Counted from the first letter of the stretch, positions 9,641 through 40,999 are shown. The stretch is DNA of 64,000 bases from a virus (IMGVR_UViG_3300024279_000008:1772-65771), one strand, 5' to 3'. Notes: generated by a model from the letters alone, not told the origin. Numbers and translations: made by a program.

Positions 9641-9936
9641 GTAAACGAAAAGAACCAGAGGTAGTGTATGTCCCAACCGATAATGGTTGGAGTGAGTTTG
9701 GAAAGACAATTGCTGGGTTAATTGGAGTCAGCATCGCAGGTGCGATTGTTTATTTGATAATCTGCACATTCTTAGCTGTGTTTGAAACCAGGGATACACT
9801 CAAAAAATTCCTAGCAAACCAATCCCCAACCCAAGTGTATTTTTACTCCGGGCAAAATAAGACTAATTGTAACTGGTTAGTCAAAGGTGCAAATACCTAT
9901 GAATGGACCTGTCCTAGGGATCAAATGGCCCCCTAA
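9637..9936 (+). CDS. predicted single-pass membrane protein
   Basis: Hydrophobic segment IAGLIGVSIAGAIVYLIICTFLAVF; last rightward gene, with stop overlapping the leftward block. Confidence 0.6.
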   Translation: MSKRKEPEVVYVPTDNGWSEFGKTIAGLIGVSIAGAIVYLIICTFLAVFETRDTLKKFLANQSPTQVYFYSGQNKTNCNWLVKGANTYEWTCPRDQMAP

Positions 9937-25917: not shown

Positions 25918-26862
25918 TTAACTTCCTTGTGTAAAAGTCCAAACAACCAGGGTATCTCCGGGTTGAGGCGGGGTTGCGAAGGTAATCACCGAACCAGAGA
26001 TGGTGATATCAGTTGTGGGGGTTTGGAGTAGACCATTCAAAAACACCTTCATGGCCGAGGGGATGATTGGGAGGTTAAATATTAGATTCACCCCATCCAC
26101 CGACCCAGTCGGGATAAAACTCTTAAACACATCTGGGATGGATATCGACCCACCAGGGCCAGGACCCATCGCAGGAGGAGGGAAGAGAATATCCCACTCG
26201 TAGTGGGAGGCTGGTTTGAGTTTACGGTATCTCTCTGGGAGCCAATTGTCCCACAGGGATTTGATCCGGAGCTTCTCCCTCTCATACTGAGCCCGATACC
26301 GAAGGGCGCGTTTGGTATCATTAACCGGACCCATCCGGAGGTAAGCCCGAGAGGCCACGTAGGGCTTGACCGACCACTGGGTCCAAGGAGGGAGGGAGAT
26401 CAGAGAGTCATCCCCATTAAACGAAAGCTGCTGGGGGTACTCGAAGATGAATGTCCCCAGGTTCGCGAGGGGTGGCCAGATGATTATCTGGGTGGAGTCA
26501 TATTGGATTATCTCCCGAGGGGTATCTGGGAGGGCATTCCGCCATTCCACGTTCCCCACCTCTAGGTCTTGGAGAAGGCGGCCTGCAAGACGGTACCCCC
26601 TTCCTCCATCTGTACCGATATAATACACTGCATCAAGGCGGCCCAGGGCAGGGGTGAGAGACCCAAGAGTCAAGGTGCTAAGCGCAGTAGTGACTGTGGC
26701 AGTCCCCCAGACAAACTCGTAGTCCTGTTGGAGTTCGTTTTGCCAATCGGTTATGAACTGGTTTAGCTCCGTGTCTGACCACCATTTCCCGGTGGTATCC
26801 ATCAACTCTCTCCGGATGACTGTCCGGGCAGTAGCAAGACTCCATTGAGAGTAGGCACTCAT
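25918..26862 (-). CDS. head-tail adaptor/ring protein with C-terminal beta-sandwich
   Basis: RRELMDTTGKWWSDTELNQFITDWQ; IIIWPP; C-terminal PTGSVDGVNLIF domain. Confidence 0.65.
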   Translation of the reverse strand: MSAYSQWSLATARTVIRRELMDTTGKWWSDTELNQFITDWQNELQQDYEFVWGTATVTTALSTLTLGSLTPALGRLDAVYYIGTDGGRGYRLAGRLLQDLEVGNVEWRNALPDTPREIIQYDSTQIIIWPPLANLGTFIFEYPQQLSFNGDDSLISLPPWTQWSVKPYVASRAYLRMGPVNDTKRALRYRAQYEREKLRIKSLWDNWLPERYRKLKPASHYEWDILFPPPAMGPGPGGSISIPDVFKSFIPTGSVDGVNLIFNLPIIPSAMKVFLNGLLQTPTTDITISGSVITFATPPQPGDTLVVWTFTQGS

Positions 26863-26865
26863 AGA

Positions 26866-28368
26866 TTAAATAACCTTTAGGTAGTGTTTTTGGTAGATCT
26901 CTTCCAACCGCTCCAGGACTAACTGAGGGAGGATTGCCACCGAACAAATCGGGGCCTGCCCGATTTCCTCTCCAGTCTCGGTGTCTTCAACTGTCCCTAC
27001 TGGGCAGGAGGCCTTGGAGTAGTGGAGCATGTGGCATGGGTAGCAGGGAGCTAGGGATTGATCCGGTTCAAGGGAGTAATCATTCTCCCAATACTTCGTG
27101 AGGTTTTCCTTCGAGGAGTGGGAGAGAAGGACGATCTTGGGGGTTGGGAAGCACCCTGAGGCGTTGGTGACCATGGTTTCAGGGCCAACTACCACCGAGG
27201 CGTATTTGGTGGAGATCAGGGACTCCCGGATGGACCATTTCCCAGACCTCTCTAGGACCTGAGGGTGGGGGAACTCCAAGAGCCGGGCAAGGTCATCACC
27301 AACTGTAACTGCTACTGCCTGAAGGTGGGTATCGAGAAACTTCCTCAAGACCGCTTCCATCAAGGGATAGACCTTGTGATGGGAGGAACCATTGAGCGCC
27401 CAGACAATAACGAACTTTCCCTTGAGCGGATCAAAGAACTCCCTTGCGCGACGCTCCTCAAAGTCGGTGAAGTAGAGTTCTCCATTCCTACCAGTGACCT
27501 CTGGGAACCCTCCCCGAGCCATGGTGTAGTCGTAGTAATTCCGGTTACACCTGGCATGACGCCAGGATTTGGTTGTGAAGAATTCCTTCCGGCCTTCCAC
27601 GATCAGCAGATCCCCTTCTAGGCTCTCAGAAAGGTTGATATACCGGTCGTAGTCTTGCTTCCATAGGTCCCAATACTGACCGAGCTCCTGGTTGGGGATT
27701 GCATCCCGTTCCTGAAGAAGAACGTTGTTGATGTAGGGGTTGCCTTGGAGGGCAGGCCAGCAATACGGAGTCCCTACAAAGGTCACATCCCACCCATTGG
27801 AGAAGTACTCCCGGAGGAGTGGGGAGAGAATGATGGCGTCTCCAAGGGCTCCAAACCGGCAGACTGCAACCCTAGGACGATCCGAACGAGGCTTCTGAGG
27901 GAGAATCCCAGTCGTACCCTTGATACGCTTGTAGATCTGGAGGGACACTCCATCATGCTCGTAAGAGTCCTTCTCCTGCCACCGTCCGACCTTCCCAACC
28001 ATCTCACGGACCTGTCTGGGGATCAACGGGAAGGTCCCTGGTTCTTGGGAGTATCGGATGTTGGTATGGACCACAAGGTGCTTGCCAAGCTTCAGCTTGC
28101 GCGCGGCGGTCCGAAGAAACTTCTCTTGATCCTCCACAACCTCTAAACGTGGCCCAATATAAACATGATCCAGGGACTCATCTGCAAACACCCCTAGGTC
28201 CTTGTCCATCACGGAGGTCCGACCATTCTGGATGACATCCACCACTACCGAATAGACCGAGGGGTTGGTTTCTTGGGCAGGGAGGATTGGGCTCCCAAAG
28301 GAAATCCCCCTCCCTCCAAGGTAACTAACCGACCGGTAGAGGGGCCAGTTCTTTGGGATCGCTCCCAT
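26866..28368 (-). CDS. glycosyltransferase family 9 (heptosyltransferase-like) with N-terminal SAM-methyltransferase-like domain
   Basis: RFGALGDAIILSPLL, VGPETMVTNASGCFPTPKIVLLS and CYPC..C..C. N-terminal FADESLDHVY...LRTAARKLKLGKHLVV. Confidence 0.85.
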   Translation of the reverse strand: MGAIPKNWPLYRSVSYLGGRGISFGSPILPAQETNPSVYSVVVDVIQNGRTSVMDKDLGVFADESLDHVYIGPRLEVVEDQEKFLRTAARKLKLGKHLVVHTNIRYSQEPGTFPLIPRQVREMVGKVGRWQEKDSYEHDGVSLQIYKRIKGTTGILPQKPRSDRPRVAVCRFGALGDAIILSPLLREYFSNGWDVTFVGTPYCWPALQGNPYINNVLLQERDAIPNQELGQYWDLWKQDYDRYINLSESLEGDLLIVEGRKEFFTTKSWRHARCNRNYYDYTMARGGFPEVTGRNGELYFTDFEERRAREFFDPLKGKFVIVWALNGSSHHKVYPLMEAVLRKFLDTHLQAVAVTVGDDLARLLEFPHPQVLERSGKWSIRESLISTKYASVVVGPETMVTNASGCFPTPKIVLLSHSSKENLTKYWENDYSLEPDQSLAPCYPCHMLHYSKASCPVGTVEDTETGEEIGQAPICSVAILPQLVLERLEEIYQKHYLKVI

Positions 28369-28847
28369 TACTCAAACACCTCGTCTTGGAACTCCTCCCC
28401 CTCAGGCTGGTTATACCCAAGACTCATACATAGGGACTGAGGGTATTGATTCACCCTGTTCGCCCCAGGATGGGGTTGGAGATGATACATCATCGCTCGG
28501 GGGGTCATGTCCACATCCGTCCGGCAATGGGGGCAATATAGATGCTGGATCTCCACTCCTCCTTCCTGCAACTCCCGCCAGATTGGGTTCTTACCCTTCG
28601 CATCGGTCACTCGCAGGCGGACAAAAAACCACCCACCCCCATGGTTCGGGTCCATGTGACGTTTGATGCTCTCTGAGGTCACAAGGATGTTGGAGTGACA
28701 ACTCATATCCGCAGGGTGCTGTCCTAGATACCCATTACAGGTAACCCGGGTAGGGACCAGCCCCGCCTTATCAAACACTCCCCAATTTGTAACAGTCTTT
28801 CGTTCACTCGAAGCAGGCGCGGTAGCATCTGTTTTTGAAACGGCCAT
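28368..28847 (-). CDS. hypothetical protein with Zn-binding motifs
   Basis: C..H..C.H and CPHC...H; TAATG coupled. Confidence 0.6.
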   Translation of the reverse strand: MAVSKTDATAPASSERKTVTNWGVFDKAGLVPTRVTCNGYLGQHPADMSCHSNILVTSESIKRHMDPNHGGGWFFVRLRVTDAKGKNPIWRELQEGGVEIQHLYCPHCRTDVDMTPRAMMYHLQPHPGANRVNQYPQSLCMSLGYNQPEGEEFQDEVFE

Positions 28848-28908
28848 GATTTATTTCCTTTGGTTGTGGAAGAGGGGAGGGTTAGTCCCCTCGTTCCGGG
28901 GTTAAGGG

Positions 28909-29385
28909 TTAGCTCACAAACAAGTTCTGCCAGAGGAAGTCAATTGCGTAACTCCCGAGGGAATCAGCCGAGGCTGTCCCTGTACAGGTGTTAATCATAA
29001 CTGGCTCACCATTGGTTGAGGTGAAGAACACCGCACCGGTTTGGGCTCCATTACTCGCGACGGTCGGGGCCACAAGGGTCGCGTCATACGCACCCACTGT
29101 CCCAACCGCCGTGGCGCTGCCAATCAATGCAGTTCCATTATAGAACCCCATCGTGACATTAGCAGCAGTTGCAGCAGCGACGGTACAGTAGATTTTAATC
29201 CCTGTAATCCTCACTGGCTGCTTAAACACAGGGAGTCGGTAGGTACCATTGACCTTAGTCCCCGCAGTACCCGTGAAGGTCTGTGTGGCTGAGGCGGTGA
29301 TGGTACCAATTGAAACTCCGCTAGAGGGTGATCCAACTACAGAGTCTTGGATCGTGACGTTAAAACCTGGATCACTATATGCCAT
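28909..29385 (-). CDS. putative capsid decoration/cement protein
   Basis: 158 aa, T/A/G-rich and beta-rich, directly after the capsid gene. Confidence 0.6.
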   Translation of the reverse strand: MAYSDPGFNVTIQDSVVGSPSSGVSIGTITASATQTFTGTAGTKVNGTYRLPVFKQPVRITGIKIYCTVAAATAANVTMGFYNGTALIGSATAVGTVGAYDATLVAPTVASNGAQTGAVFFTSTNGEPVMINTCTGTASADSLGSYAIDFLWQNLFVS

Positions 29386-29397
29386 GGTTTTGTCTCC

Positions 29398-30129
29398 TTA
29401 TGCTGAGGTAACATACACAATATGCTGCTCCGCAGGCGTGCCTGTGTAGCTCCATACTGTCTTCCATCCACCAAGGAAGTACCACGCTAGGCCCTGATCG
29501 CGGCCATAGTCAATGGAGACCTTCACTCGGAGTTCCTCGGGAACTGCGACGGCCTCGTAGACCGCATCAGCCCCAAAGAACACAGCAGCTCCATGGGTGG
29601 AGCCATTCCCGATGGTGTTGGATAGATATCCAGTTTCCTCTACGAAGCGGGTGTTGTAGTACTTCCCAATCTCCCCGTTGAAGATATTCTTCGCGAAGTC
29701 CACCGTGTACTTCGAGACATCCACCCAACCACCAGCAGCGGTATCTCCAAACATCCCAGAGAGAGCCGCAGTGGAAGCAATGCAGATGTAGGACTGACCA
29801 TCGAATTTCGGGATCAGTTTCTTCTTCATGAAGTCCACAACCGACCGGACATTCGCTCCGGTTAGATCGGCAGTAGCCACAGCAGTGGCAGTGCCATTGG
29901 TTGTGATGACGGTGTTGTTGGTGGCGGACATCACCGCGATGAACTCGGTATTAACATACTGAGCCCCCGCAGCAGATTCCAGGGCCTTGACCATATCATC
30001 TCGTAGGGATTGCTCCACTGCCGGTTCGATCATGATCTGACCTAGGGCTTCGAGCTTCCCGGTATAGGGGACCGAGTTGCCGTATTCTACGATCACGCCA
30101 GTACCCTGGCCGACCGTAAAGTTCGTTTG
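29398..30129 (-). CDS. major capsid protein (N4 gp56-like), exon 2
   Basis: QTNFTVGQGTGVIVEYGNSVPYTGKLE...GEIGKYYNTRFVE...DYGRDQGLAWY; joins in frame to exon 1 to give 317 aa. Confidence 0.9.
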   Translation of the reverse strand, partial: QTNFTVGQGTGVIVEYGNSVPYTGKLEALGQIMIEPAVEQSLRDDMVKALESAAGAQYVNTEFIAVMSATNNTVITTNGTATAVATADLTGANVRSVVDFMKKKLIPKFDGQSYICIASTAALSGMFGDTAAGGWVDVSKYTVDFAKNIFNGEIGKYYNTRFVEETGYLSNTIGNGSTHGAAVFFGADAVYEAVAVPEELRVKVSIDYGRDQGLAWYFLGGWKTVWSYTGTPAEQHIVYVTSA

Positions 30130-30870
30130 TATTTATGTTAACTTACTATCACTAGTAAGATCGGACTTTCTCATCATTCAGATGTCTGAAGGGAGGCGTA
30201 AAGTCTCTGAGGACTCACCAAAAGGTTTGTTTGCTTCACGAGAAAAATTAAGAATCGATGGATAATTATGAACCTCATCCCTAATTTTTTCGACTAGTTC
30301 CTTTATTCTTGGTTCTCCTTGAAGAGATACTCCATGAAATTTACAGGACTTATCCTGCCCAGCAGCAACTGCTAGACTCTCACGGTAGTCAACCAATTCT
30401 ATTGCTAATTCCGATCTTCGTCGTTTAGCAAATAAATATGGAATGACTTGCTCAAGAAGTTTCTTGACTCTTTGTTTCCCACCAATTGTAATGCAAACTC
30501 CAGGTTTTGACTTCTTTGGACTTTGAGGGGAGGAGATATAAAATCCAACTTCCAGCCTACAAAGAATTTCTGTTGTTCGCCTAATAATTAGTGGATGAGT
30601 ATTATAGATTGTAACTCTTACAGTTAAGTTATTGCATTCTTTCTGGTTTCTAAATCCAGCATAAATACATCCCTCACCATCTATAATAGCTCCAAGCCAA
30701 GCCAAATCGGTGTCTTTCCTGCGGGTTGACTCAGCTTCAGGATTATTACCAACCTGGGTACCTGAAAGACTCTTGAGTGATTCCTGCATATGGTCTCCTT
30801 TTACATGCCCCAAACGGGGAAATTAGTTTACTATCTGACTGTAGAATAGCACGCTATTTCCCAAATGTCC
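30130..30870 (-). mobile_element. group I intron (741 nt) in the major capsid gene
   Basis: IGS CGUUUG-GGGCAUG (30816-30804) pairs with the spliced junction CAUGCCU|CAAACG. P7 GAGACUU/AAGUCC; P9 CUUACUA-GUGA-UAGUAAG. Confidence 0.9.
30178..30789 (-). CDS. intron-encoded LAGLIDADG homing endonuclease
   Basis: LAWLGAIIDGEGCI motif; AAGGAG RBS before ATG 30789. Confidence 0.9.
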   Translation of the reverse strand: MQESLKSLSGTQVGNNPEAESTRRKDTDLAWLGAIIDGEGCIYAGFRNQKECNNLTVRVTIYNTHPLIIRRTTEILCRLEVGFYISSPQSPKKSKPGVCITIGGKQRVKKLLEQVIPYLFAKRRRSELAIELVDYRESLAVAAGQDKSCKFHGVSLQGEPRIKELVEKIRDEVHNYPSILNFSREANKPFGESSETLRLPSDI

Positions 30871-31092
30871 AGGCATGGTGTTCGTCTCAGCCAGGACTGT
30901 ACCTTGCGTGGAGACGTTACCTCGTTTATCGAATAGCCAAGTATCACCACGGTTCTTACCGACATTTTCCTTGACATCCACGAACTGTCTAAAGCGAAAC
31001 TGTGGTTGTGCCTGTGCACGTAACCGTTGGGTTAGATAAGGCTGTGAAAGGTAACCACCTAGGCTACCTGTTGAGTATTGCTGTCCTGGCAT
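30871..31092 (-). CDS. major capsid protein, exon 1
   Basis: AAGGAGG RBS; GGYLSQPYL...FRFRQFVD...GDT...LAETNTMP ends in U at the 5' splice site. Confidence 0.9.
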
Positions 31093-31143
31093 GGTGCCTG
31101 GACCTCCTTTATCATTCTAATTGAACAAACATTCCACCCATCC

Positions 31144-31950
31144 TTATACCTGTAGGTTCCTCAACCTCGCCGCTGATGCGTTACGCCGGGCGAAGTAGTC
31201 ATCTGCTGACTCTCCCTGCGGTTGAGTTGGTTGCGACTGGGAATGGTCCCCTACCTGTTGGGGAGGTGGAGTGAAAGCATTCCGAACTTCCTGCGTTCGG
31301 GTGATTGCTTCTTGTTTGCCATCAGCACGATACTGGAGGCCTAGGTTTCGTAGTTCTGTTACTTCTTTGTCTACAGATTCCTTGTAGATACGAACGAAGT
31401 CTTCGGACGAGTGGATTCGTCCAGCGGCACGTTCTGCCTCGACTCGCGCATTCACAGGGGCTTGTAGGTACCGTTCAAAACGAGCTAGATCGGGATTTTC
31501 CATCCTGACCTTGGTTATATGACGGTCAATCTCTAATTGGACCTGGGTTGCAGCTAGGGCGTCCGCGTAGGCTTTCTGGGTTACTTCCCCTTCAATGCCT
31601 TTCCGGACAGATTCTGTTAGGGCTTTTTCTGCTCCCTCAAAGTCCCCCTGACGGATCTTCTCGACCCAACCCACAACCGGAGCTACTGGAAGGGCCGATG
31701 CTTGGAGGGTCTGGGACCGCGTGGAGAGTGCCTCAATCTTGGCGTTCAATGCCGAGAGAGTATCGGTGAGTTCCTGGGGGATCACCATGGGAGCTGGAGC
31801 TGGGGGCTGCTGAGGAGTGGGGGGTTGGGGTGGGCCGTTCTGAACCGGGCCACTATACAACCTCGCATATTTTTGTTCGGGGGTCTCCAGGTCTACAGGC
31901 TGCTGGCCCTGAGGTTGACCCTGAGAGGGATCGGTAACTGTTGTTGCCAT
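31144..31950 (-). CDS. capsid scaffolding protein
   Basis: P/Q-rich ends and helical core, directly upstream of the capsid gene. Confidence 0.75.
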   Translation of the reverse strand: MATTVTDPSQGQPQGQQPVDLETPEQKYARLYSGPVQNGPPQPPTPQQPPAPAPMVIPQELTDTLSALNAKIEALSTRSQTLQASALPVAPVVGWVEKIRQGDFEGAEKALTESVRKGIEGEVTQKAYADALAATQVQLEIDRHITKVRMENPDLARFERYLQAPVNARVEAERAAGRIHSSEDFVRIYKESVDKEVTELRNLGLQYRADGKQEAITRTQEVRNAFTPPPQQVGDHSQSQPTQPQGESADDYFARRNASAARLRNLQV

Positions 31951-31969
31951 GGGTTAAAATCTTTCCTTT

Positions 31970-32269
31970 TTATAGTGATACACCTTTGTGGTTGAGTTCT
32001 TCGAGGGCTTTCTCCCCCCGAGTTAGGACAGTTTCCATCACCTGGATGATGTAGTCAATCCCGTATGCACGAGCCGCACATTGGTCCCGAGTCACTCCTG
32101 GGGGAAGTTCACCCCCTAGGATGTTGTTAACCAGGGCCTTGGTGTATTGGTCACGGGTTTTTTGGAGCTTCGGCAGTATCACGTCTGTCCAAGCAATGTG
32201 ATGGAGGAGATCGAAAGTATCCTCGGCTTGGGCGACTGCCACGAGAGTAGAATGGGTATCAGTGGGCAT
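31970..32269 (-). CDS. small helical head-module protein
   Basis: 99 aa between the portal region and the scaffold gene. Confidence 0.6.
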   Translation of the reverse strand: MPTDTHSTLVAVAQAEDTFDLLHHIAWTDVILPKLQKTRDQYTKALVNNILGGELPPGVTRDQCAARAYGIDYIIQVMETVLTRGEKALEELNHKGVSL

Positions 32270-32280
32270 AGGTGGAAGGG

Positions 32281-34512
32281 CTACTGACTCAAATCAAGCC
32301 ATTGGGTGCCATCATATCGAAGATTGATAATACCACCAGAAACGTAGGCCGTACCAATGTTATTGGCTGGGTTACGAGCGCTCTTAATGGCCAGGGCAGA
32401 TCCGCTAGCATAGGCTAAGGTGTTCGATCCAGCCTGTAAGGAATGGGCTAGTTTGATACTCAACCCTAGACCTTTAATGAGTGGTAGGCCAATCTGGGTC
32501 GCCACCAAGGCATTATTGGCTCCAGTGGATTCATCAGCGGTGTAGTAGACTCCATAGTCATTCCCAGAGGAAGCATCAGCAATGGGGATGGTAATAGAGC
32601 CCGGGATCATGGAATTGGAATGAACCGTGTTTTGGTTGCTGGTAGCATCGAAGTTCATCCCAGTGGTGGCCGTACCACCAAAGCTGTTGCTATTGAATTC
32701 ATTGAGAATGCAGGTGTTGGTAACGGATAACAGAACGGTAGCAGTTGGGTCACCAATCATCACGTTGTTGTTGAAAGTGTTGCCTGCACAAGAGCCGGAA
32801 AAATGCGCGCCGGTCTTTCCCCCTGGTACCCGGAACACGTTGTTGTTATAGGAGCTATATGCAGCTCCTCCAGACCCATCAAGTAGCAGGCCATTCCCAT
32901 ATAGGAACTGGACGTTGCTAACCACTACACCCCGAGAATTGGTATTGTGGATACCGTTGTTACCAGTGGTCGGAGCCACATACCCGCCAGTGATTTCAAT
33001 ACTCCCTGGGTATCCCGTGTTGCCATTAAGGAAAATACAATCCACCTGGCAGCCATCATGGATACTGTTAACAAAGTGCATATCGATAGCAATTGTACTA
33101 TCGATATAGAATCCATAATCGAGGGTAGCAGACTCAAAATGATCAGTTTTGATATCTGAGGTATGGGTACCATGGACGTATAACCCACGTGTATTACTAC
33201 CAGTCCCTACCGCTAAGCAATGTAGAAGGTAGGTGGTGAAGCTTCCTGCGGTGGTCGTGTCAATTTCCCAACCCGACCGTACCGACGCACTAGTTGTCGT
33301 CCAGTTGCTTATAAGAGTATCCCAAGTCCCTGAACGTGCTGAGTTTAGTTTGAAGTTAACAAACGAATCCTTCGCAGAGACATGATCGATAAGTATCCAA
33401 CATGCGTCCGTTGTATTAATCCCAACCGATCCTGCAACCCCAACAGGTGTACGTTGGATTTGGAGATTCCGTACCACGGGGTTGTTAATACTCGTTGCCC
33501 CAGCACAATCAGTGGTTGTTCCTACAATAGAGATAATATCCCCACTTGTCGAGGTATCGTTGATTATCGTGGGAGACGAAGCACCTCCAACACCTAATGG
33601 AGCAACACCTTGGATGGTTACACCACTCTTTTCAATGATTGCTCCTGTGGTTTTATACGTCCCAGCCTGGAGTTGAACAATCCCACCCCCACCCGTGGAG
33701 CGGGCGGCAATTACTGTATTTATTGCTGCAAGATCATCATGGGAATTGTCTCGCAATGCTCCAAGCCACTCGGGGTAGAGGCTAGGGGTAGCAGGGCCAA
33801 ACACAACAGTGCCTGTACCAGTGAGACCGATTTGCTGGACCAATGCCCCATAGAAGGTGCCATTTAGGGTTAGGGTGAAGGTGTTTTTAACGAGGAGTGC
33901 CCCACCGGCGGGTGGGGATAGACTATACACCGGACAAGTCAAGGTTAGATTCGTTCCAACCGCATACGCCTTATTTGGAGTGAGTTGGAACCCTCCAGGG
34001 TACGCAGTACAGGCATTGGTTAAGGCCGTAGAATCATCGGTGGTTCCATCTGCATTAGGAGATTGGGTAGCAATCGATGGCAGTTGCTTCTGGACAAAAG
34101 CATCCGTCCCGAACTTTGTGGAGCTATCTCCATCAGCCTGGGTGGTAGCAGTAGTTGGAGTAGCAGGACCGGTGATTGTAATCCCTCCAACCCCATCATC
34201 GGTGATAGTGATGTTAGTACCGTTTTTGAGGTTAAGGACCGTTTGGGATCCATTGGTGGTTCCATTGGTCTTCAACGTAACCGTTGTTCCTCCACCCTCC
34301 GAAGTGAATGATCCGTTCACACACCGATAGGCGGTGGAGTTACCAGTGTTGTAGAAGAACGCTGGTGAGGAGCAGCTCCCTGGGGTTGTAGCTCCGGCAT
34401 CATAATAAACCCCATTATAAAACGTCATTTGGGAAGGTTGGGAATGGGCAACCTGTCCCAGGGCTAGAAAGGTTGCCAGGAATGTAGCAACCTGAAGAAT
34501 TCTCTTAAACAT
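32281..34512 (-). CDS. beta-helix (pectate-lyase-like) protein with N-terminal signal peptide
   Basis: MFKRILQVATFLATFLALGQVAHS|Q signal; DDLAAIN..GGGIVQLQAGTY; C-terminal YDGTQW. Confidence 0.75.
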   Translation of the reverse strand: MFKRILQVATFLATFLALGQVAHSQPSQMTFYNGVYYDAGATTPGSCSSPAFFYNTGNSTAYRCVNGSFTSEGGGTTVTLKTNGTTNGSQTVLNLKNGTNITITDDGVGGITITGPATPTTATTQADGDSSTKFGTDAFVQKQLPSIATQSPNADGTTDDSTALTNACTAYPGGFQLTPNKAYAVGTNLTLTCPVYSLSPPAGGALLVKNTFTLTLNGTFYGALVQQIGLTGTGTVVFGPATPSLYPEWLGALRDNSHDDLAAINTVIAARSTGGGGIVQLQAGTYKTTGAIIEKSGVTIQGVAPLGVGGASSPTIINDTSTSGDIISIVGTTTDCAGATSINNPVVRNLQIQRTPVGVAGSVGINTTDACWILIDHVSAKDSFVNFKLNSARSGTWDTLISNWTTTSASVRSGWEIDTTTAGSFTTYLLHCLAVGTGSNTRGLYVHGTHTSDIKTDHFESATLDYGFYIDSTIAIDMHFVNSIHDGCQVDCIFLNGNTGYPGSIEITGGYVAPTTGNNGIHNTNSRGVVVSNVQFLYGNGLLLDGSGGAAYSSYNNNVFRVPGGKTGAHFSGSCAGNTFNNNVMIGDPTATVLLSVTNTCILNEFNSNSFGGTATTGMNFDATSNQNTVHSNSMIPGSITIPIADASSGNDYGVYYTADESTGANNALVATQIGLPLIKGLGLSIKLAHSLQAGSNTLAYASGSALAIKSARNPANNIGTAYVSGGIINLRYDGTQWLDLSQ

Positions 34513-34515
34513 AAC

Positions 34516-36804
34516 TTATCGTCCTCCTCCACCAGCCGGGGATTGTTGAGCCTGCTGCTGGAGTTGCTGTTGTTGAAGTTGTTGGGCTCCCATTTCCTGG
34601 GTATGTTGGAGTGCCATTTGGGCTAGTTGGGTTGCTTGTTCCTGCTTAGCAGAGTCTTGTTCATGGGTTAGACGTTGGAGATCCAGGGATTGCTGGTGTT
34701 GTTGCTGGCCTTGGAGTTGTTGGTGTTGGAGGAGTTGGGGGATAAGGCCGATAAGATCCGAGGTGGATGCTTGGTTCTGCATCTCGATCTTTTTGGCTTC
34801 CTGAGTAGCAGGATCAGCGATGATGTCCTCGATCTCGTGGATGTGGGGACGGAAGCACTCAAGGACCCTCCGGAGGAGGACATCCTGGTTCACGTAGGGA
34901 AGCCACGCTTCGGGGTTCTGACCGATGAGGTTCATGAGCTGAACCAGGTTTTGGAGAGTCTCGGCTTTCATGAGCTGGCCGGTGATACCCACAGATTTGA
35001 CCTTGTAGTCCCCCTGGATTAGTTCCATGATCTCCTCACGGGGCATTCCATTGAGGACATCTGCGCCGACCCCAAGGATGGAGGCGACCCGCTGGTCATT
35101 GGAGGTATCGATGAATTGGAAAATCAGATCCATCGCCATTGTGACGAGGGGCTCGATAGCTTCCTTCTCGATGTCTGCTGCCATCCCTCCCATGAAGGAT
35201 TCGGATTGTTGTTGGAGGAGTTGGGACTCGGTAGCGGTTTGTTGGCCTTTCCATCGGGGAAGGCCCTCGGCAATATCTGAGATCAGGGCTCCTTCCTGGT
35301 GGGCTCGGTCAAGCATCGCTGCAACCTGGGTAGTCCCACCAGAGATATCCTGGAACTCCACGGGTTTGATTCCTTGAATCCCCGCATTCCCCAGGTTCTT
35401 CCTAAGCATCTTTCCAGGGACAAGGCCTGTCTCTAGATCCTCGGGGTTCTCGAATGCCTCGACTGCTACCTCAAACAACGGCAGAAGCCTGAACATCAAG
35501 GTATCTACTGAGAGATTCGCGATTTGTGACAGTGCTTTATCAATAAACCGTACATTTTCAATAAGACCCACACCCTCCGTGCGAAAGGGAAGTGAGAGAG
35601 GCGAGAAGCCAATGTAGGGAGCTTTGCGATGTAGGAACGGGTTGTCTTGGTATACGAGAACCGTCGAGTCGTTCCCAAGGATGACATGGGCAAACTCCTT
35701 TACGATCTTTCCGTCAAAGACTATGGGGCCGTAGTACTCGGTGAGTTTGCAGACCGCAGTGTCGGCATTGGGGCCGTTCTGGGTCATAACGGTTTCACCA
35801 AACCGGAGGTTGGACATCTTGTAACGTTCGTCAATCCGCATGGATTGGAGATGGTCGATTTTCTCTCGGGGGAAGATCCCTGCATCAGCCATTTTGATAA
35901 GCTCCCACCGGGGGATTTCGATATCCTCGATGGTTCCTACCCACCGGTTAAGCTTCGAACCGGGAAGCCAATAGAAGTTGTAGGGGTCAACCGCCCGGAG
36001 GTATAGACGACCCTCCATGATTTCTTCCTGGACGAGCTTCTTTTGGGGGATCATTAAGTAGGAAGGAGGGGCGGACCCGCCCGGGCCTTGTCCCCATCCC
36101 TCGGGTGCGAGCATCTCCCCACCAAGTTGCTGGGGGTAGGAGGCTTGGTTTTGTTGCATGTACCCGAACCGGGGTTGCCCAAAGGGCGGGGGGATCTGCC
36201 GAGGGGTAGGCTCAGACTGGAGAAGGTCTTGTTGGGTGTCGAGGGGGCCAGCTTCACCTGGGGAGCCTTGAGGGATAGGAATGTATGAGGTCTTAACCCG
36301 GGTTTGTTTCCGAGGATACAATCCCCACCAGAGCTTCCAAACCCCAAGCCCAAGCATAAACCCGCACTCCAGCCCCTCAGTGAATTCCTTCAGGAAGTAG
36401 GCTTTGTCTAGGAAATGCCGGGTAAGGTAGGTGAGTTGCTCGGCACGGAGAGATTCTAGGATATCATCTGGGTTGGAGGCTTCGATATCCCAGGGTTTCT
36501 TCGAGGCAGTCAAGAGCCGCTTGATGGTGTTGGTAGCCATCTTGACCGAGGTCCAGGATTTTGGGAGGACAATCTTCGATTGCCAGTCATCCTTCACAGA
36601 CCAATCATCCAATCCTCGATAGAGCTTCCAGCAATCATCCCAGATGTTCCGGCGTTGGATAAATACCGATCGGCACTGCTGCCGCCATGTGGTGATGTAT
36701 GCCGCGATTTTTGCTTCCTCTGAGGAGGGTTGATTCGTCGAGGTGGCTTCATTACCCGAGGAAAAGTCAATCGGGTATGCATGTTCTAATTGGACAATGG
36801 CCAT
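34516..36804 (-). CDS. portal protein (P22-like)
   Basis: 762 aa; VDPYNFYWLPG, TATE..LLQQ and Q-rich C-terminal barrel; follows the terminase nuclease gene. Confidence 0.88.
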   Translation of the reverse strand: MAIVQLEHAYPIDFSSGNEATSTNQPSSEEAKIAAYITTWRQQCRSVFIQRRNIWDDCWKLYRGLDDWSVKDDWQSKIVLPKSWTSVKMATNTIKRLLTASKKPWDIEASNPDDILESLRAEQLTYLTRHFLDKAYFLKEFTEGLECGFMLGLGVWKLWWGLYPRKQTRVKTSYIPIPQGSPGEAGPLDTQQDLLQSEPTPRQIPPPFGQPRFGYMQQNQASYPQQLGGEMLAPEGWGQGPGGSAPPSYLMIPQKKLVQEEIMEGRLYLRAVDPYNFYWLPGSKLNRWVGTIEDIEIPRWELIKMADAGIFPREKIDHLQSMRIDERYKMSNLRFGETVMTQNGPNADTAVCKLTEYYGPIVFDGKIVKEFAHVILGNDSTVLVYQDNPFLHRKAPYIGFSPLSLPFRTEGVGLIENVRFIDKALSQIANLSVDTLMFRLLPLFEVAVEAFENPEDLETGLVPGKMLRKNLGNAGIQGIKPVEFQDISGGTTQVAAMLDRAHQEGALISDIAEGLPRWKGQQTATESQLLQQQSESFMGGMAADIEKEAIEPLVTMAMDLIFQFIDTSNDQRVASILGVGADVLNGMPREEIMELIQGDYKVKSVGITGQLMKAETLQNLVQLMNLIGQNPEAWLPYVNQDVLLRRVLECFRPHIHEIEDIIADPATQEAKKIEMQNQASTSDLIGLIPQLLQHQQLQGQQQHQQSLDLQRLTHEQDSAKQEQATQLAQMALQHTQEMGAQQLQQQQLQQQAQQSPAGGGGR

Positions 36805-36808
36805 AGGG

Positions 36809-37726
36809 TTACCGTAAGAACGTCCATTCTTTATCTTGGGTCATTCGCTGACGAGGAGCGGTAGAAGCAGGGCCAAAGCCGAACTTAGCGGCGAGGTTGG
36901 GCAAGGAGATCTTTCGAGACCGTAGGGATGGAGCGGAGTTCATGAAGTACTTACAGTCATCCAAGGCGTGGTTTTGTTTATCGATGAGCTGCTCCCGGTA
37001 GTTTTGGGTTTCAAGTTGCCGTTCGGTCATTGAAACATACGTAGCGTTCTCGAATTCCTCAATCATCTTCGGGCAGGATGACATGATTTTGAAGGTTACC
37101 TCATCCCCACACCAGTGTTTTTGCATGGTTGAAAGCCAGGCCTGCTCATCGGTGTTGCCTTGGAGGAGCTTGGAGATCCCCATCTCGATGAATTGCCGCC
37201 CAATCGTGGACATCATTCCGGTTCGCATGTCCCGTTGGGAGTAGTTGTTGAGGGATGGGTCATGGGCGATGTACCGGATTTGGTCCCAATACGGGCAGGC
37301 CTTCAAGGCCGAGGAGAATGCTTGGATGTCCTTACAGGGTTCGTATAGCTCCCAGATGGCATAGAGGATTCCATCCACTGCTGTGTAGACATGGAAGCTG
37401 GAGGGGTTGCGGGAGCCGTAATCAAACCCCGCCCACATAGGGAGGGACCGAGGCCAGTCGTTGAATTGGAACGGGCCGTCATGGAGGATGATCTCAGATT
37501 GACGGGATTTAATCTCCGGGAAGGCCTTCTCCCCGAGCATGGCATCGTAGGAGATGTCGAATTCCTGTTCGAACTTTGCCTGGGACATACCCTTAGCGGC
37601 TTCCTTTCGCCAAGCAGCAGATCGCTTCCGAGGGTCAGCAGTGTGATGGAGGGTTGCCACGACGAAGCCGTTCTGACCATTCTGGACGATCTTCAAGCCT
37701 TGCTGGGTATGGAGGAGTTTAGCCAA
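36809..37726 (-). CDS. terL: terminase large subunit, C-terminal (lid + nuclease) polypeptide
   Basis: GGAG RBS + TTG; LHHTADP, FEQEFDI, AGFDYGSRNP, DKQNHALDDCKY. Confidence 0.85.
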   Translation of the reverse strand: MAKLLHTQQGLKIVQNGQNGFVVATLHHTADPRKRSAAWRKEAAKGMSQAKFEQEFDISYDAMLGEKAFPEIKSRQSEIILHDGPFQFNDWPRSLPMWAGFDYGSRNPSSFHVYTAVDGILYAIWELYEPCKDIQAFSSALKACPYWDQIRYIAHDPSLNNYSQRDMRTGMMSTIGRQFIEMGISKLLQGNTDEQAWLSTMQKHWCGDEVTFKIMSSCPKMIEEFENATYVSMTERQLETQNYREQLIDKQNHALDDCKYFMNSAPSLRSRKISLPNLAAKFGFGPASTAPRQRMTQDKEWTFLR

Positions 37727-38459
37727 GGACCGCTCCTACTGGAGGGACTGCAAGGAGCATTTTGGAGACGGTCAGCCCGAAGGGGTTGGGGGCATGGTTG
37801 AAGTTCTGGGTGTTGTACATAGGGAAGAAGAACTTCGTTACATCGTACCCCAACCTCCCAAGAATCTCAGGGAGCTGCTCCAGACCTTGTTGCATAACTG
37901 TATCGAACTCCATAAACAGCGGGCATCGGGTCCTCTGAAGGGTCTCAAGGGCACCAACCAGGAAGGCAGGTTCCATTCCCTCGATGTCGGCTTTGATGAA
38001 GGCAGGGGTCAGGCCGAAGGAGTCCAAAGTTCGGATCTCTACAGCCACGTCCCCTTTGGAATCCATCATGGTACCTCCTGCTCCCTCGATTGGAGGAACC
38101 GAGGAGTAATACATCGTCATGGGTTTGTCCCCCAACCCAAATGGCAGAACCTCCACGTTGGAGATGTGGTTGGTAGCTAGGTTCCATTCTAGTACCTCTC
38201 GGACCTCAACCTGGGGCTCGAAGGCATAGATCTTTCGACAGACCTTTGAGAGGGGGAGGGTTAGATCCCCAATGTAGGCTCCGGCCTCGACAATATCCAC
38301 CGGTCCAGAGTGGAGGGAGAGCAACCCAAGAAAGACCTTTAGGTAAGTTAGCTCTGAATCGGAGTATTCCCCTAGCTCCCGAAGACTCCTTGACACCCAA
38401 GGGTCCTCATTGAAGATCTTCATTGGGCCATACCGGGTTGGGACAATGGAAGTTGTCAA
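37719..38459 (-). CDS. FkbM-family SAM-dependent methyltransferase
   Basis: VEAGAYIG, AFEPQ, IKADIEGME. Confidence 0.88.
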   Translation of the reverse strand: MTTSIVPTRYGPMKIFNEDPWVSRSLRELGEYSDSELTYLKVFLGLLSLHSGPVDIVEAGAYIGDLTLPLSKVCRKIYAFEPQVEVREVLEWNLATNHISNVEVLPFGLGDKPMTMYYSSVPPIEGAGGTMMDSKGDVAVEIRTLDSFGLTPAFIKADIEGMEPAFLVGALETLQRTRCPLFMEFDTVMQQGLEQLPEILGRLGYDVTKFFFPMYNTQNFNHAPNPFGLTVSKMLLAVPPVGAVLG

Positions 38460-38462
38460 GGG

Positions 38463-38819
38463 TTATTTACCAACGGATTTCAAAAACACCGATGCAGCCA
38501 CAAGGATATCTGAGGCTAGGGCCTCAGTAGCTAGGGGACCATCAATCACTGTTGCTGGTCCCTTCAAAACCCCTTTGGCATTCAATGCCGTCACAGTAGA
38601 TTGGACTCCATTGGTTAGGTCCGCGCCGGTCTGCGGGGTACCTAGCAACGCCCCCACTGCACTCAACCCACCCTGGATAGCAGCAGAGATCTCAGTGGCT
38701 GCGGGGAGTTTCTGCGCTCCAGACTTGGGTGGGAAGAGTTTCTCTACGAGTTTGGCTACCAGGTCATTGATGACTGGGATTGCAATTGGGGCTACCATCC
38801 CAATAACTGCACCTGCCAT
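38463..38819 (-). CDS. putative holin-like membrane protein
   Basis: Hydrophobic N-terminus and GAQKL motif; TAATG coupling. Confidence 0.4.
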   Translation of the reverse strand: MAGAVIGMVAPIAIPVINDLVAKLVEKLFPPKSGAQKLPAATEISAAIQGGLSAVGALLGTPQTGADLTNGVQSTVTALNAKGVLKGPATVIDGPLATEALASDILVAASVFLKSVGK

Positions 38820-39172
38820 TACTGGACCTCCACAGGGGTGGAGACATCCCACTTGGCAAAAGTGAGGGCCTCAGTGAGAGGCACGCCAGGCATTCCCCAA
38901 TATGTAGCGAGCTGCCCGGCGTTCCGACGGGTTCCATCCGGGAACTCAAGCCATGGAACAGCTCGGTTAAAACCAAACGGCGAACCGGGGGCTTGAGGGA
39001 TAGGTGGGGCAAAGACTACTTTGGGTTTATCAGGAAACAACCCCGCCAACACCAAAGCACTCGAAGGCATCAAACAGTAAAGTTGGTTGATAGGTTGAAC
39101 GATCTTCGGGGAGGTTGTGTGGTATTCCAAGACCCCAGAGTCATATTGTGGAACAAAATCTTCAGGTTTCAT
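38819..39172 (-). CDS. hypothetical protein
   Basis: 117-aa ORF directly after the terminase ATPase gene. Confidence 0.65.
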   Translation of the reverse strand: MKPEDFVPQYDSGVLEYHTTSPKIVQPINQLYCLMPSSALVLAGLFPDKPKVVFAPPIPQAPGSPFGFNRAVPWLEFPDGTRRNAGQLATYWGMPGVPLTEALTFAKWDVSTPVEVQ

Positions 39173-39174
39173 AA

Positions 39175-40044
39175 TTAGTTGTCGCTTGTGTCTCGACAGA
39201 TTTTTTCGAACCAGCTCCTATTTGCTGAGGAGATTGCTGTGAACTTTCCCCCCATAAGGATAGCTGGTTTGATTGCTGCATAGGCTGCCTCAGCCTCGAC
39301 CTGGAAGGCTGCCTCGTCAAGAAATATCCCGGAGGGATGGAACTGTCGAATTTGATCCGGACCTTGAGCAAATCCGAGAATCTCAGATTCTTGTTTTGTA
39401 ACAAACATTTCTCCTGAGCGGTGGTCGCCTTTGCCGAATACCACCGGTCCTACCACATCCCGAAGGAACTTGGGTTGTTGACGAGCGATGAAATGGGCAC
39501 GTTGGACAAGCTCCAGGGTCTTAGGAGCAGTTTGGGATTGGAACAAATGCTGCCGTCCCTTGTGGAAGAGGGTATCCCACGTGTGGAGAGCTACTACCAG
39601 CCAAGTCGCCATCATATCCCGGGATTTCTCCACCACGAAATACTGGTCCTTTACCCACTCCTCAATGAGTGGGAGCATATAGGCTTTTAGGAGGAAATCC
39701 GGGAACGGTCGAATGGCCGGTAGTTCATGAAACTCGGCCTCGATCTCCCTGAGCTTGGTAAGGATCTTACCATGGGTAAGCTCCAAATGAGTCCCTCTAG
39801 ACTGCGGTAGTACCTCCATTTGGCAAGAGCGGCACTCGAAGAGTAGATGGGGGTCCTTCGTATAGACATAAGGGATGCCCTCGGGGAATTGCTCGGTCTT
39901 GGGGTGCTGGGAGGCATCGAACCAATAGATCGCATCATCCTGACAGCGGGTGTATTCTCGTTCCCCAATGGCTTGGAAAATCCTCCGCTGGTCCTTAGGG
40001 GCCATTCCGGAGATTTGCTTGAAGACCTTTGGGGTTAGTTCCAT
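39175..40044 (-). CDS. terL: terminase large subunit, N-terminal ATPase polypeptide
   Basis: Walker A-like VEKSRDMMATW, Walker B IFLDEAAF, coupling motif ISSAN, then a stop. Confidence 0.85.
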   Translation of the reverse strand: MELTPKVFKQISGMAPKDQRRIFQAIGEREYTRCQDDAIYWFDASQHPKTEQFPEGIPYVYTKDPHLLFECRSCQMEVLPQSRGTHLELTHGKILTKLREIEAEFHELPAIRPFPDFLLKAYMLPLIEEWVKDQYFVVEKSRDMMATWLVVALHTWDTLFHKGRQHLFQSQTAPKTLELVQRAHFIARQQPKFLRDVVGPVVFGKGDHRSGEMFVTKQESEILGFAQGPDQIRQFHPSGIFLDEAAFQVEAEAAYAAIKPAILMGGKFTAISSANRSWFEKICRDTSDN

Positions 40045-40165
40045 GGGTTATCGACGGCCTGACATTGCTTCGAAAGCAGACACAACCTGAGAATCGAAGG
40101 ATTGGATCTTGCGAAGCTCTGAGGTGAGGTACCAGCCCCACACAAGGATCCCTAGGACTAGGAGT

Positions 40166-40999
40166 CTACCAAACGTAATTTTTACTGTCACGTATTTCCT
40201 CCACGGTTACGGTTGAGGTGTAGGGCTTGCCTACCACTACTGCTGCGGCCATATTTGCAAAGTCGATATTCCCGATGAGGTTGTTTCGGTCCTCTAACCA
40301 AGCCTTCACGAAGGCTGCAAGGACTGTGTCACCTGCTCCATTCACGGAGACAACCTCCTTAGCGAGGGATGGTCGGGTGATGATTCCTCGACCGTACTCT
40401 AGCCAAGCTAGGCCTTCCGGGCCACGTTTCAGGAGGACCTTTGGGAACCAGTCATAGGAGGATCGGTACCGCATGTACTCGGAGGTGTTTGGGAAGAGTG
40501 TTACGTAGTCGCCGCCTTGGAACCAGGGGAGTGGGTCGGATTTGGTATCCACAAAAAGGGGAAGTTCTAGAGCTAGAAGGAACTCCTCAATGTCCTCAGT
40601 GATTGAACCCTTTCGGTAATCTGAAACAACTACTGCCTCCAACCCCGGAAGATATGGGATGATGTCTTTGACCCGAATAGGGGAACAATAATCCCTTTCA
40701 TCCCACCGAGCAAGTTGGAGGTTGGATTCAGTCACGAGGCGGTTTTTAATCGGGATATTCCCTGGCCCTGCCAATGGAGCTACTGCCTTGACTTTGAGGG
40801 CCTTCAGATTATCCTGAACATTCCACGCGCCACCTGGGAATTCTTTGGTGTCGATCACATCCACAATTGGGACGGGGGCCTCAGCGGACATCCCTCGGAT
40901 GGTCCCAATGAAGTACTGGTCAACAAAAGCATCACCAAGAACGAGGATGGTATGGAGGCCTCCTACTGCTTCTTCGGGGTTTCGCATAGCTTTGCCCAT
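40166..40999 (-). CDS. PfkB-family kinase, HldE/RfaE domain I (heptose-7-phosphate kinase)-like
   Basis: ILVLGDAFVDQYFIG...SAEAPVPIV, GGAWNV..NL, VVSDYRKGSI, VDTK, VNGAGDTVLAAF. Confidence 0.85.
   Translation of the reverse strand: MGKAMRNPEEAVGGLHTILVLGDAFVDQYFIGTIRGMSAEAPVPIVDVIDTKEFPGGAWNVQDNLKALKVKAVAPLAGPGNIPIKNRLVTESNLQLARWDERDYCSPIRVKDIIPYLPGLEAVVVSDYRKGSITEDIEEFLLALELPLFVDTKSDPLPWFQGGDYVTLFPNTSEYMRYRSSYDWFPKVLLKRGPEGLAWLEYGRGIITRPSLAKEVVSVNGAGDTVLAAFVKAWLEDRNNLIGNIDFANMAAAVVVGKPYTSTVTVEEIRDSKNYVW

Follow-up and report, generated by a model that had tools for sequence, protein, structure and literature searches.

A candidate heptose glycosylation system among the virion genes of an uncultured phage

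We propose that an uncultured phage, with a complete genome of 65.8 kb and terminal repeats, carries a heptose glycosylation system, expressed late, that would modify the phage's own particle, with the host finishing the synthesis of ADP-heptose; taken as a whole, we consider this proposal about evenly poised between right and wrong. The analysis shows what the genes encode, how their products fold, which motifs are conserved, and how the genes are arranged and co-occur. Heptosylation of virion proteins is the best reading of these observations; what donates the heptose, what accepts it, what is methylated and how far the host contributes are inferred. An initial annotation of a 64,000-nucleotide stretch of this genome (hereafter, the window) had assembled such a system from a kinase, an FkbM methyltransferase, a GT9 heptosyltransferase-like gene and a histidine phosphatase. 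The kinase class, the GT9 fold and motifs, the co-occurrence of the genes and the finding of a GmhA in the genome sustain that interpretation; the membership of the histidine phosphatase is not supported.

Results

All four open reading frames are present on the minus strand (Table 1). At least 959 relatives of the kinase and at least 352 of the 500-aa transferase (26866-28368) were found at E<=1e-10, and both are hence real genes rather than chance open reading frames.

Table 1. Genes and domains of the proposed system and its surroundings. Positions are those of the window unless marked otherwise.
Feature	Position	Strand	Remarks
HldA-type kinase (predicted), 277 aa	40166..40999	-	First gene of the terminase/virion operon
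Large terminase, N-terminal (ATPase) half	39175..40044	-	Terminase large subunit phrogs, 3.3e-9
FkbM-family SAM methyltransferase	37719..38459	-	PF05050, TIGR01444
Large terminase, C-terminal (nuclease) half	36809..37726	-	Terminase phrogs, 2.2e-6
Capsid gene	29398..30096		Match to major head protein phrog
158-aa Ser/Thr-rich beta-sandwich protein	28909..29385	-	Adjoins capsid gene
159-aa Cys/His-rich small protein	28368..28847	-	Directly upstream of transferase
SAM-methyltransferase-fold domain of fusion, residues 1-151	27916..28368	-	VIA-align
GT9 heptosyltransferase-fold domain of fusion, residues 161-500	26869..27888	-	AF2 model, hhalign
Putative four-cysteine metal-finger insertion, Cys442/445/455/475	26944..27045	-	C-lobe; alignment
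SU10-type adaptor gene	25918..26862
Histidine phosphatase	9933..10622	-	PF00300; end of virion operon
GmhA-like gene	15-584 (genome)		Outside the window, 1.2 kb away; TIGR00441

The kinase gene had been annotated as HldE/RfaE-type. Its product is a PfkB-type kinase (Pfam PfkB, 7.7e-12) in which the motifs quoted in support, SAEAPVPIV and GAGDTV, occupy residues 38-46 and 221-226, and HMM, sequence and fold searches agree in placing it with HldA/HldE rather than with the ribokinases. The best NCBIfam match is rfaE_dom_I (4.1e-39; next non-HldE family, 2.4e-7). By sequence against the PDB, HldA (4e84) is matched at 4.2e-20 and ribokinase at 0.037, and the AF2 model (pLDDT 94) compares with HldA at Z 27.9, an rmsd of 2.6 A and 32% identity, as against Z <=24.8 and 16-17% identity for ribokinases. 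The protein is ~30 aa shorter than HldA, with a gap between residues 69 and 116, and scores 134.5 bits against an NCBI equivalog cut-off of 345 for TIGR02198. We predict from these three lines of comparison a short, HldA/HldE-like D-glycero-D-manno-heptose-7-phosphate kinase of HldA type. It matches phrog_8133 at 2.3e-39, and only 35 of 50,697 deposited phage records contain a match to it.

The initial annotation left GmhA and the adenylyltransferase to be supplied by the host or by the rest of the genome. For GmhA, the rest of the genome suffices: just outside the window lies a gene for a SIS-fold protein whose best family is TIGR00441 (7.3e-23, with DiaA, the next non-GmhA family, at 1.4e-8), at 81 bits against an equivalog cut-off of 209. 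As predicted from sequence, the phage encodes enzymes for the two opening steps of ADP-heptose synthesis, GmhA and the kinase. Adenylyltransferase, GmhB and epimerase genes were not found in its genome, and the pathway is therefore incomplete without a host contribution. The genes of the system lie 12-40 kb apart.

Among relatives, the subset of pathway genes differs. GmhA is found in our phage and in G001. Transferase-bearing phages acquired their linkage to the pathway in no fewer than three separate layouts: a short kinase gene located upstream of the terminase, to which G002-G007 add an HldC-like gene at a distance of 1.5-2 kb; GmhA and HldC beside SSB in G008; and a bacterial-type GmhA-HldE-GmhB cassette, with two models over NCBI cut-offs, in G013. 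The anticipated co-occurrence of kinase and transferase is seen in 7/7 closer relatives sampled; no pathway gene was detected in 4 of 12 near-complete transferase-bearing relatives.

The transferase had been read simply as a GT9 gene. Its GT9 fold and motifs stand, but the whole open reading frame is a methyltransferase-GT9 fusion, the protein model having two domains (Table 1). The GT9 domain (AF2 model, pLDDT 91.9; Foldseek E 2.6e-13) gives Z scores of 24.8 to 3tov (GT9), 23.3 to WaaF, 20.4-20.6 to TibC and 20.2 to WaaC, with the best non-GT9 GT-B fold at 13.9, ~10 units lower. Aligned by hhalign, the 500-aa protein matches Escherichia coli WaaF at E 1.5e-4 over 203 columns and shares with it the motifs GD, YDR..L..S, G.P..TG.RGE and acidic residue-[ST]; its identity to WaaC/WaaF and other GT9 proteins is ~12-15%. 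The protein itself has no match to Pfam GT9 (PF01075) at E<=0.01 or E<=1, nor to any NCBIfam family at E<=1. In 11 of 20 related genomes the homologue does match Pfam GT9, that of G006 alone exceeding the cut-off (30.3 bits). It is the fold, the alignment to WaaF and the matches of the homologues that place the transferase in GT9.

Three residues, Asp177 (GD), Lys332 and Glu397 (GPET), are kept in all 16 phage sequences aligned. Asp177 stands at the column of WaaC Asp13 ('MGD') and TibC Asp110; Lys332 at that of TibC Lys230 and of the WaaC DDK lysine, which we take to be Lys192; and Glu397 at that of the D(T/S)G aspartate of WaaC/WaaF. Where those enzymes have D-[ST]-G, the phage proteins have an invariant G-P-E-T followed by Met, Gly, Ala or Ser (E-T-M in our phage). 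Equally invariant, both in the alignment and in homologues of 30-35% identity, are Cys442, 445, 455 and 475, which both hhalign and MAFFT align with TibC Cys339/342/358/370, the residues that coordinate iron in that enzyme (PMC4358343); the four-cysteine finger is not present in WaaC or WaaF.

The N-terminal domain of the fusion gives VIA-align Z scores of 13-16 to many SAM methyltransferases and a weak Pfam match to Methyltransf_11 (0.0038). The transferase of L034 has no such domain, and a separate 186-aa Methyltransf_23 gene (2.3e-15) precedes it. A tblastn search of 50,697 phage records with the transferase returned no match, and hence no cultured relative.

The location of the transferase between capsid and adaptor genes is as described in the initial annotation, and it recurs across the clade: 31 of 32 loci found via the transferase have the gene on the same strand as the capsid gene and 1.5-3.6 kb downstream of it, a layout also seen in 20 of the 22 loci that were located independently via the capsid protein. 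Its start is overlapped by one base by the stop of the gene for the 159-aa protein, which is kept directly upstream in closer relatives, bears the motifs C...CH...CxxC...H...PH and has no family match. The 158-aa protein has an S+T content of 24% and an Atlas model with a beta-sandwich fold; its structural neighbours are viral hypothetical proteins, and a 'phage cement' cluster nearby is a weak lead (0.76). Purely as a lead, we regard it as a candidate decoration protein and candidate acceptor. Ser/Thr-rich proteins are present in the virion set, a composition common in fibre and decoration proteins.

The FkbM methyltransferase was correctly named, with both PF05050 (1.3e-9; 38.9 bits against 22.7) and TIGR01444 (5.5e-18; 65.8 bits against 37.7) over cut-off, and it lies inside a split large-terminase gene. 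The N-terminal half of the terminase is homologous to separate N-half open reading frames in G001, G004 and G005, and the C-terminal half is 42-46% identical to separate C-half frames in G004 and G005. Between the halves, G005 too has an FkbM gene, G004 has both a Methyltransf_11/23 gene and one for an HldC-like nucleotidyltransferase, and G001 has a gene for a TylF-type sugar O-methyltransferase; the terminase gap is filled, in other words, by a predicted sugar methyltransferase of varying, non-orthologous family (FkbM, Methyltransf_11/23, TylF).

The gene at the far end of the operon does encode a histidine phosphatase (PF00300, 7.5e-22), but it probably does not belong to the heptose system. 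Five of the 20 related genomes encode it, and so do 3 of the 9 that bear the kinase. It always adjoins an ejection-type gene: G001 and G004 have it after the large gene of this type, and in G014 it is embedded at ~residues 281-413 of a 1387-aa ejection-type open reading frame. An Ais/PmrG-type role is not supported, on the same grounds, namely no association with the heptose genes and synteny with, or fusion to, an ejection-type protein.

Discussion

We posit that, in the infected cell, the phage GmhA would convert sedoheptulose-7-P to D-glycero-D-manno-heptose-7-P and the HldA-type kinase would phosphorylate the latter to heptose-1,7-bisphosphate, with the host supplying the GmhB and HldC steps that complete ADP-heptose. 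The GT9 domain would then transfer the heptose, Asp177 acting as general base, Lys332 binding phosphate and Glu397 the sugar, most likely onto Ser/Thr residues of a virion protein. The TibC-like four-cysteine finger would probably serve in oligomerisation or in recognition of the protein substrate, and the N-terminal methyltransferase domain, together with the separate FkbM enzyme, may O-methylate the sugar. Late expression is implied by the position of the kinase as first gene of the terminase operon.

The bacterial autotransporter heptosyltransferases (BAHT), which are protein O-heptosyltransferases, form a dodecamer of back-to-back dimers and modify a protein Ser acceptor. The phage enzyme resembles these proteins (TibC, AAH; PDB 4rap/4rb4; PMC4358343) in its GT9-type GT-B catalytic domain, in having the catalytic Asp and Lys of TibC at the same alignment columns, and in a CxxC...C...C finger inserted in the C-lobe; it would also be expected to use ADP-heptose as donor, the co-occurring heptose-pathway genes being the context for this. 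Unlike them, it has a Rossmann-type methyltransferase domain in place of the N-terminal flattened beta-barrel, a Glu at the position of the TibC stereoselectivity residue Pro300, and a gene that is phage-encoded in a head module without an autotransporter substrate. No NCBIfam BAHT model matches the 500-aa protein at E<=1, and against one TibC sequence hhalign returns E 0.2.

WaaC, WaaF and other GT9 proteins (PDB 1psw, 2h1h, 3tov; PF01075), which differ from the phage protein in having no fused methyltransferase, include the best structural matches (Z 20-25), and it may be asked whether the enzyme instead decorates a glycan of the host envelope, the LPS core or another, with (methyl-)heptose, perhaps as a block to superinfection or a way of keeping progeny off debris. 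We judge such host-surface remodelling unlikely. It would fit the two structures that match best, namely 3tov, a GT9 protein with no function assigned to it, and the LPS heptosyltransferase WaaF; it would fit the acidic sugar-binding residue, which is like that of WaaC/WaaF and unlike TibC; and some of the relatives carry a provirus flag or come from MAG contigs of 112-204 kb. However, our phage has terminal repeats and no integrase was noticed in it, the gene is fixed clade-wide in the head-assembly module, among virion assembly genes rather than those of LPS core synthesis, the kinase is placed for late expression, and the extra finger is common to the protein-modifying TibC and is not found in WaaC/WaaF.

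The same host-surface reading draws support from cyanomyophages. P-SSM2, S-CAM1, S-CAM3 and S-SSM7 encode a short HldA-like kinase of phrog_8133, with 30-36% identity to ours over >90% of its length, in a cassette with a nucleotidyltransferase and a phosphoheptose isomerase; the pairing with GmhA is common to our phage, and in the cyanophages GmhA and HldC-type genes adjoin the kinase. The P-SSM2 copy sits among tail-fibre genes, with one on either side. The cassette has been read as one of 'LPS genes' (PMC1079782), and for those of P-SSM2 an action at the host surface has been proposed. Those cyanophages are T4-like myoviruses, unlike our phage, and a search at 1e-5 gave no counterpart of the fusion transferase in them.

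It is distinctly improbable, in our estimation, that the GT9-like gene has no functional connection with the genes of the heptose pathway, the kinase and GmhA being general auxiliary metabolic genes and the transferase using another donor. The four near-complete relatives with a transferase and no detected pathway gene, the patchiness of the subsets and the distances between the genes would all be expected on that account. Against it, transferase-bearing phages acquired the pathway genes in three or more layouts, and yet these genes are rare in phages overall, to judge by the 35 phage records noted above, and the characterised GT9 enzymes are, to our knowledge, almost all heptosyltransferases. 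More improbable still is that the 500-aa protein is mainly a head/neck structural or assembly protein whose enzyme-like folds are without catalysis, as its fixed place among structural genes and its poor detection by sequence models of active families might suggest, since pseudoenzymes usually lose catalytic and binding residues, whereas Asp177, Lys332 and Glu397 are invariant down to 30% identity and donor-pathway and methyltransferase genes co-occur with it.

Heptosylation of the phage's own particle has a positional parallel in mycobacteriophages, in which, according to the account in PMC12801897 of Freeman et al. (2023, Cell Host Microbe 31:1216), transferase genes beside capsid genes glycosylate virions. 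As that account has it, glycosyltransferase genes lie directly behind the capsid gene and the particle is the proposed or shown target. Our enzyme differs in being GT9/BAHT-like, in being accompanied by heptose-pathway genes and methyltransferases, and in belonging to a podovirus-like clade. The mycobacteriophage transferases are reportedly non-GT9 enzymes that use hexose donors, in phages of Actinobacteria.

We would extend the proposal, more tentatively and at somewhat less than an even chance, to a large uncultured clade of ~55-75-kb podovirus-like phages, which may O-heptosylate and then O-methylate their own capsid-decoration or fibre proteins by means of a BAHT-like metal-finger GT9-methyltransferase fusion. 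If true, protein heptosylation would be seen for the first time beyond the bacterial autotransporters, and we know of no earlier virion glycosylation system in phages for which all host leads are Gram-negative; the donor pathway would be topped up by a variable, phage-borne set of ADP-heptose genes.

Proposed donor pathway genes

An HldE-type kinase, an FkbM methyltransferase, a GT9 glycosyltransferase and a histidine phosphatase had been proposed to form one heptose-glycosylation system, and all four genes were found at the coordinates tabulated below, with the quoted motifs. HMM, PDB sequence and fold comparison all favour HldA/HldE over ribokinase for the kinase, as the initial annotation had it. 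Its top NCBIfam family is HldE domain I (4.1e-39; next non-HldE family, 2.4e-7), with a score under the NCBI equivalog cut-off. Among solved structures, sequence comparison finds Burkholderia HldA at 4.2e-20 and ribokinase at 0.037, and the closest structural match to the kinase model, which has pLDDT 94, is again HldA (Z 27.9, rmsd 2.6 Å, 252 residues, 32% identity), with ribokinases and pseudouridine kinases ranking below (Z ≤24.8, 16-17% identity). The protein is about 30 residues shorter than HldA. At least 959 proteins make up its phage lineage (phrog_8133), many being encoded on 64-71-kb contigs, and cyanomyophages, too, have this short kinase, beside a phosphoheptose isomerase and a small nucleotidyltransferase.

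GmhA had been thought missing from the window but possibly present elsewhere in the genome, and a GmhA-like SIS protein (best family TIGR00441, 7.3e-23) is indeed encoded 1.2 kb to its left. The genome carries no adenylyltransferase, other nucleotidyltransferase, GmhB-type phosphatase or epimerase, and no match to PF01467, PF00483, PF12804 or PF01370. A frameshifted adenylyltransferase spread over two small ORFs in the gap of the split terminase was considered and rejected, no similarity being found in any frame.

Among twenty related phage genomes, all seven closer relatives (G001-G007) carry the short kinase, so that the anticipated co-occurrence of kinase and transferase is observed. G002-G007 encode an HldC-like nucleotidyltransferase besides the kinase and have no SIS gene; the two HldC-like genes tested, those of G004 and G005, match rfaE_dom_II at 4e-23 and 1e-19. 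In these two genomes, both without a SIS-type GmhA, a mannose-6-P-isomerase-like cupin adjoins the kinase and may stand in for the isomerase or act as an epimerase of nucleotide sugars. G008 has GmhA and HldC beside SSB, and G013 encodes a bacterial-type GmhA, a bifunctional HldE (4e-144) and a GmhB (above cut-off), all mutually adjacent; no pathway gene was detected in G009-G012.

The histidine phosphatase, in turn, does not appear to belong with these genes. It is present in just 5 of the 20 relatives and in only 3 of 9 kinase-bearing genomes, and it travels with, or is fused to, an ejection-type protein: it comes after a large ejection-type gene here, in G001 and in G004, and the domain embedded in a G014 virion-block ORF suggests an ejected enzyme. 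We assign it to an ejected-protein module rather than to the heptose system, although it may have a GmhB-like role.

Coordinates of features in the window, the whole viral record and related loci
Feature	Sequence	Coordinates	Observation
GmhA-like SIS gene	whole record	15-584	
Histidine phosphatase	window	9933-10622	
Transferase	window	26866-28368	minus strand, 500 aa
Protein upstream of transferase	window	28368-28847	159 aa, small, Cys/His-rich, zinc-finger-like; translationally coupled to the transferase gene
Capsid gene	window	29398-31092	split by an insert; uninterrupted ORF of 315-334 aa in relatives
Insert in capsid gene	window	30178-30813	encodes a LAGLIDADG/HNH-type endonuclease
Large terminase	window	36809-40044	separate ATPase-half and nuclease-half genes
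FkbM methyltransferase	window	37719-38459	
Two small ORFs	window	38463-39172	
HldE-like kinase	window	40166-40999	
tmRNA	window	47774-48310	permuted, 29-residue tag (ARAGORN)
Cupin	L084 (G004)	4616-5206	mannose-6-P-isomerase-like
Cupin	L088 (G005)	5767-6135	mannose-6-P-isomerase-like
Homing endonuclease gene	L072	9394-10074	GIY-YIG/NUMOD3, immediately upstream of a GT9-only transferase version
Virion-block ORF of G014	L091	2315-6478	1387 aa; histidine phosphatase domain at about residues 281-413
FkbM domain of G018	G018 contig	26809-27327	inside a 998-aa open frame; second FkbM gene 2 kb away

A methyltransferase-GT9 fusion in the head module

Pfam, NCBIfam, PHROGs and PDB sequence searches gave no useful match to the transferase, tblastn against deposited phages and phmmer against the PDB gave none, and a PDB profile search was swamped by spurious alphaRep repeat matches, with the GT9 structure 3tov reaching only 0.0034. 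The transferase belongs to a large family, with at least 352 clusters and 142 IMG/VR loci, and the model (pLDDT 91.9, from an alignment of 34 sequences) shows a class I SAM-methyltransferase fold at residues 1-151 (Z 13-16) and a GT9 fold at residues 161-500, with Z scores of 24.8 to 3tov, 23.3 to WaaF, 20.4-20.6 to TibC and 20.2 to WaaC, against only 13.9 for the best non-GT9 GT-B fold. A profile alignment to WaaF of E. coli (E 1.5e-4) spans both lobes, and the two have GT9 motifs in common; the Pfam GT9 model matches the homologue in 11 of the 20 related genomes, above cut-off once. Fold, profile match and conserved motifs together support the earlier assignment to GT9.

When 16 phage members (identity down to 30%) were aligned with TibC, WaaF and WaaC, Asp177 (GD), Lys332 and Glu397 (G-P-E-T) proved conserved in all 16 phage sequences, in the columns of the catalytic base, phosphate-binding lysine and sugar-binding acid of the known enzymes. 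Cys442, 445, 455 and 475 are likewise invariant and align, by both hhalign and MAFFT, with TibC Cys339/342/358/370, which bind iron and which TibC needs in order to form dimers and dodecamers and to contact its protein substrate (PMC4358343). WaaC and WaaF lack these four cysteines. We therefore regard the transferase as having a GT9 fold and sharing one hallmark with the protein-modifying branch of bacterial autotransporter heptosyltransferases (BAHT). Where TibC has a beta-barrel, it carries the methyltransferase domain.

Of the 32 loci that the transferase search yielded with a length of at least 17 kb, 31 have the transferase gene 1.5-3.6 kb downstream of the capsid gene and on its strand; in the closer relatives the next gene encodes an adaptor. 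Independent sampling via the capsid protein gave 22 loci that extend at least 1.4 kb beyond the capsid gene on its downstream side, and 20 of them contain the transferase. The head module has the transferase as a constant component. The 159-aa protein encoded upstream, to which an Atlas structure search assigned no family, was rejected as an acceptor, being Cys/His-rich rather than Ser/Thr-rich and conserved in the closer clade only. ORFs upstream of GT9-only genes were considered as detached methyltransferase domains: in L034 the methyltransferase is indeed a separate gene, not fused to GT9, while the ORF in L072 is a GIY-YIG endonuclease (Pfam).

Between the terminase halves lie three genes, encoding proteins of 117 aa and 129 aa (the latter hydrophobic) and FkbM. 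The terminase is also split into two genes in G004 and G005, and variable sugar-gene cargo recurs; G001 has a separate N-half ORF followed by a methyltransferase gene, with no C-half within the 9 kb examined. The methyltransferase slot holds FkbM here and in G005, Methyltransf_11/23 with the HldC-like gene in G004 and a TylF-type enzyme in G001. Slot methyltransferases of varying family, together with the fused methyltransferase domain, point to an O-methylated sugar.

The phage and its possible hosts

The IMG/VR record, of which the window covers bases 1772-65771, is complete (65,771 bp; CheckV completeness 100%) and has direct terminal repeats of 127 bp. From about 9.9 to 41 kb the genes run leftward, in one terminase-portal-scaffold-capsid-adaptor-tail-ejection block. 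The closest cultured relatives of the portal protein, Pelagibacter and Roseobacter podophages, share only about 23% identity with it, so the lineage is uncultured; a megablast of 26000-41500 against deposited phages found no match. Transferase homologues in metagenome-assembled genomes (MAGs) are scattered across numerous phyla, mostly on phage contigs that were binned wrongly, and, like the portal relatives, they are at most a weak guide to the host. Long MAG contigs of Geobacteraceae and Desulfuromonadaceae (L101 and L102, 204 and 113 kb) that carry distant homologues are a possible host lead. Two relatives bear an IMG/VR provirus flag, and these flags and the MAG contigs hint at temperate members in the clade.

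Discussion

We suggest late, particle-directed (methyl-)heptosylation as the best-supported reading. GmhA and the kinase, both phage-encoded, would channel sedoheptulose-7-P into the heptose pathway, the host would complete ADP-heptose synthesis, and a virion protein would be the substrate of the fusion enzyme. Possible acceptors include a 158-aa Ser/Thr-rich beta-sandwich protein, whose gene adjoins the capsid gene, and several proteins containing 19-28% Ser+Thr. The virion proteins considered as candidates are the capsid protein, this 158-aa protein, Ser/Thr-rich proteins of 743, 566 and 1427 aa and an S/N-rich one of 225 aa.

The chief alternative is that the system remodels LPS or the envelope, as cyanophage heptose genes have traditionally been read (PMC1079782); in the cyanomyophage P-SSM2 the kinase/isomerase/nucleotidyltransferase cassette sits between two tail-fibre genes, and in the present clade the transferase sits in the head module with TibC-type cysteines. 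A non-catalytic transferase with a structural role would agree with its fixed position, and has to be weighed against its conserved catalytic columns. That the heptose-pathway genes and the transferase are unrelated is countered by our main argument for a nucleotide-heptose donor, namely that phages sharing the transferase have gained heptose genes in three or more layouts, yet the kinase finds matches in just 35 of 50,697 deposited phage records.

Phage heptose cassettes (by annotation only), BAHT protein heptosylation and mycobacteriophage virion glycosylation are each known singly. To our knowledge, phage heptose genes have been labelled 'LPS genes' since 2005 without a test, virion glycosylation has been demonstrated for mycobacteriophages only, and protein O-heptosylation is known solely from autotransporter adhesins. 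Searches of the literature turned up no description of a heptosyltransferase that is encoded by a phage and acts on virions, nor of the combination of a head-module methyltransferase-GT9 bearing a metal finger with variable donor and methylation genes.

This clade links a heptose donor pathway, sugar methyltransferases and a TibC-like transferase to the head-assembly module, and hence offers a testable alternative to LPS for the purpose of phage heptose genes. The methyltransferase-GT9 fusion with its metal finger would give glyco-engineering a new enzyme architecture, and a glycan coat on the particle would matter for how stable the phage is, how it adsorbs and how hosts or grazers recognise it.
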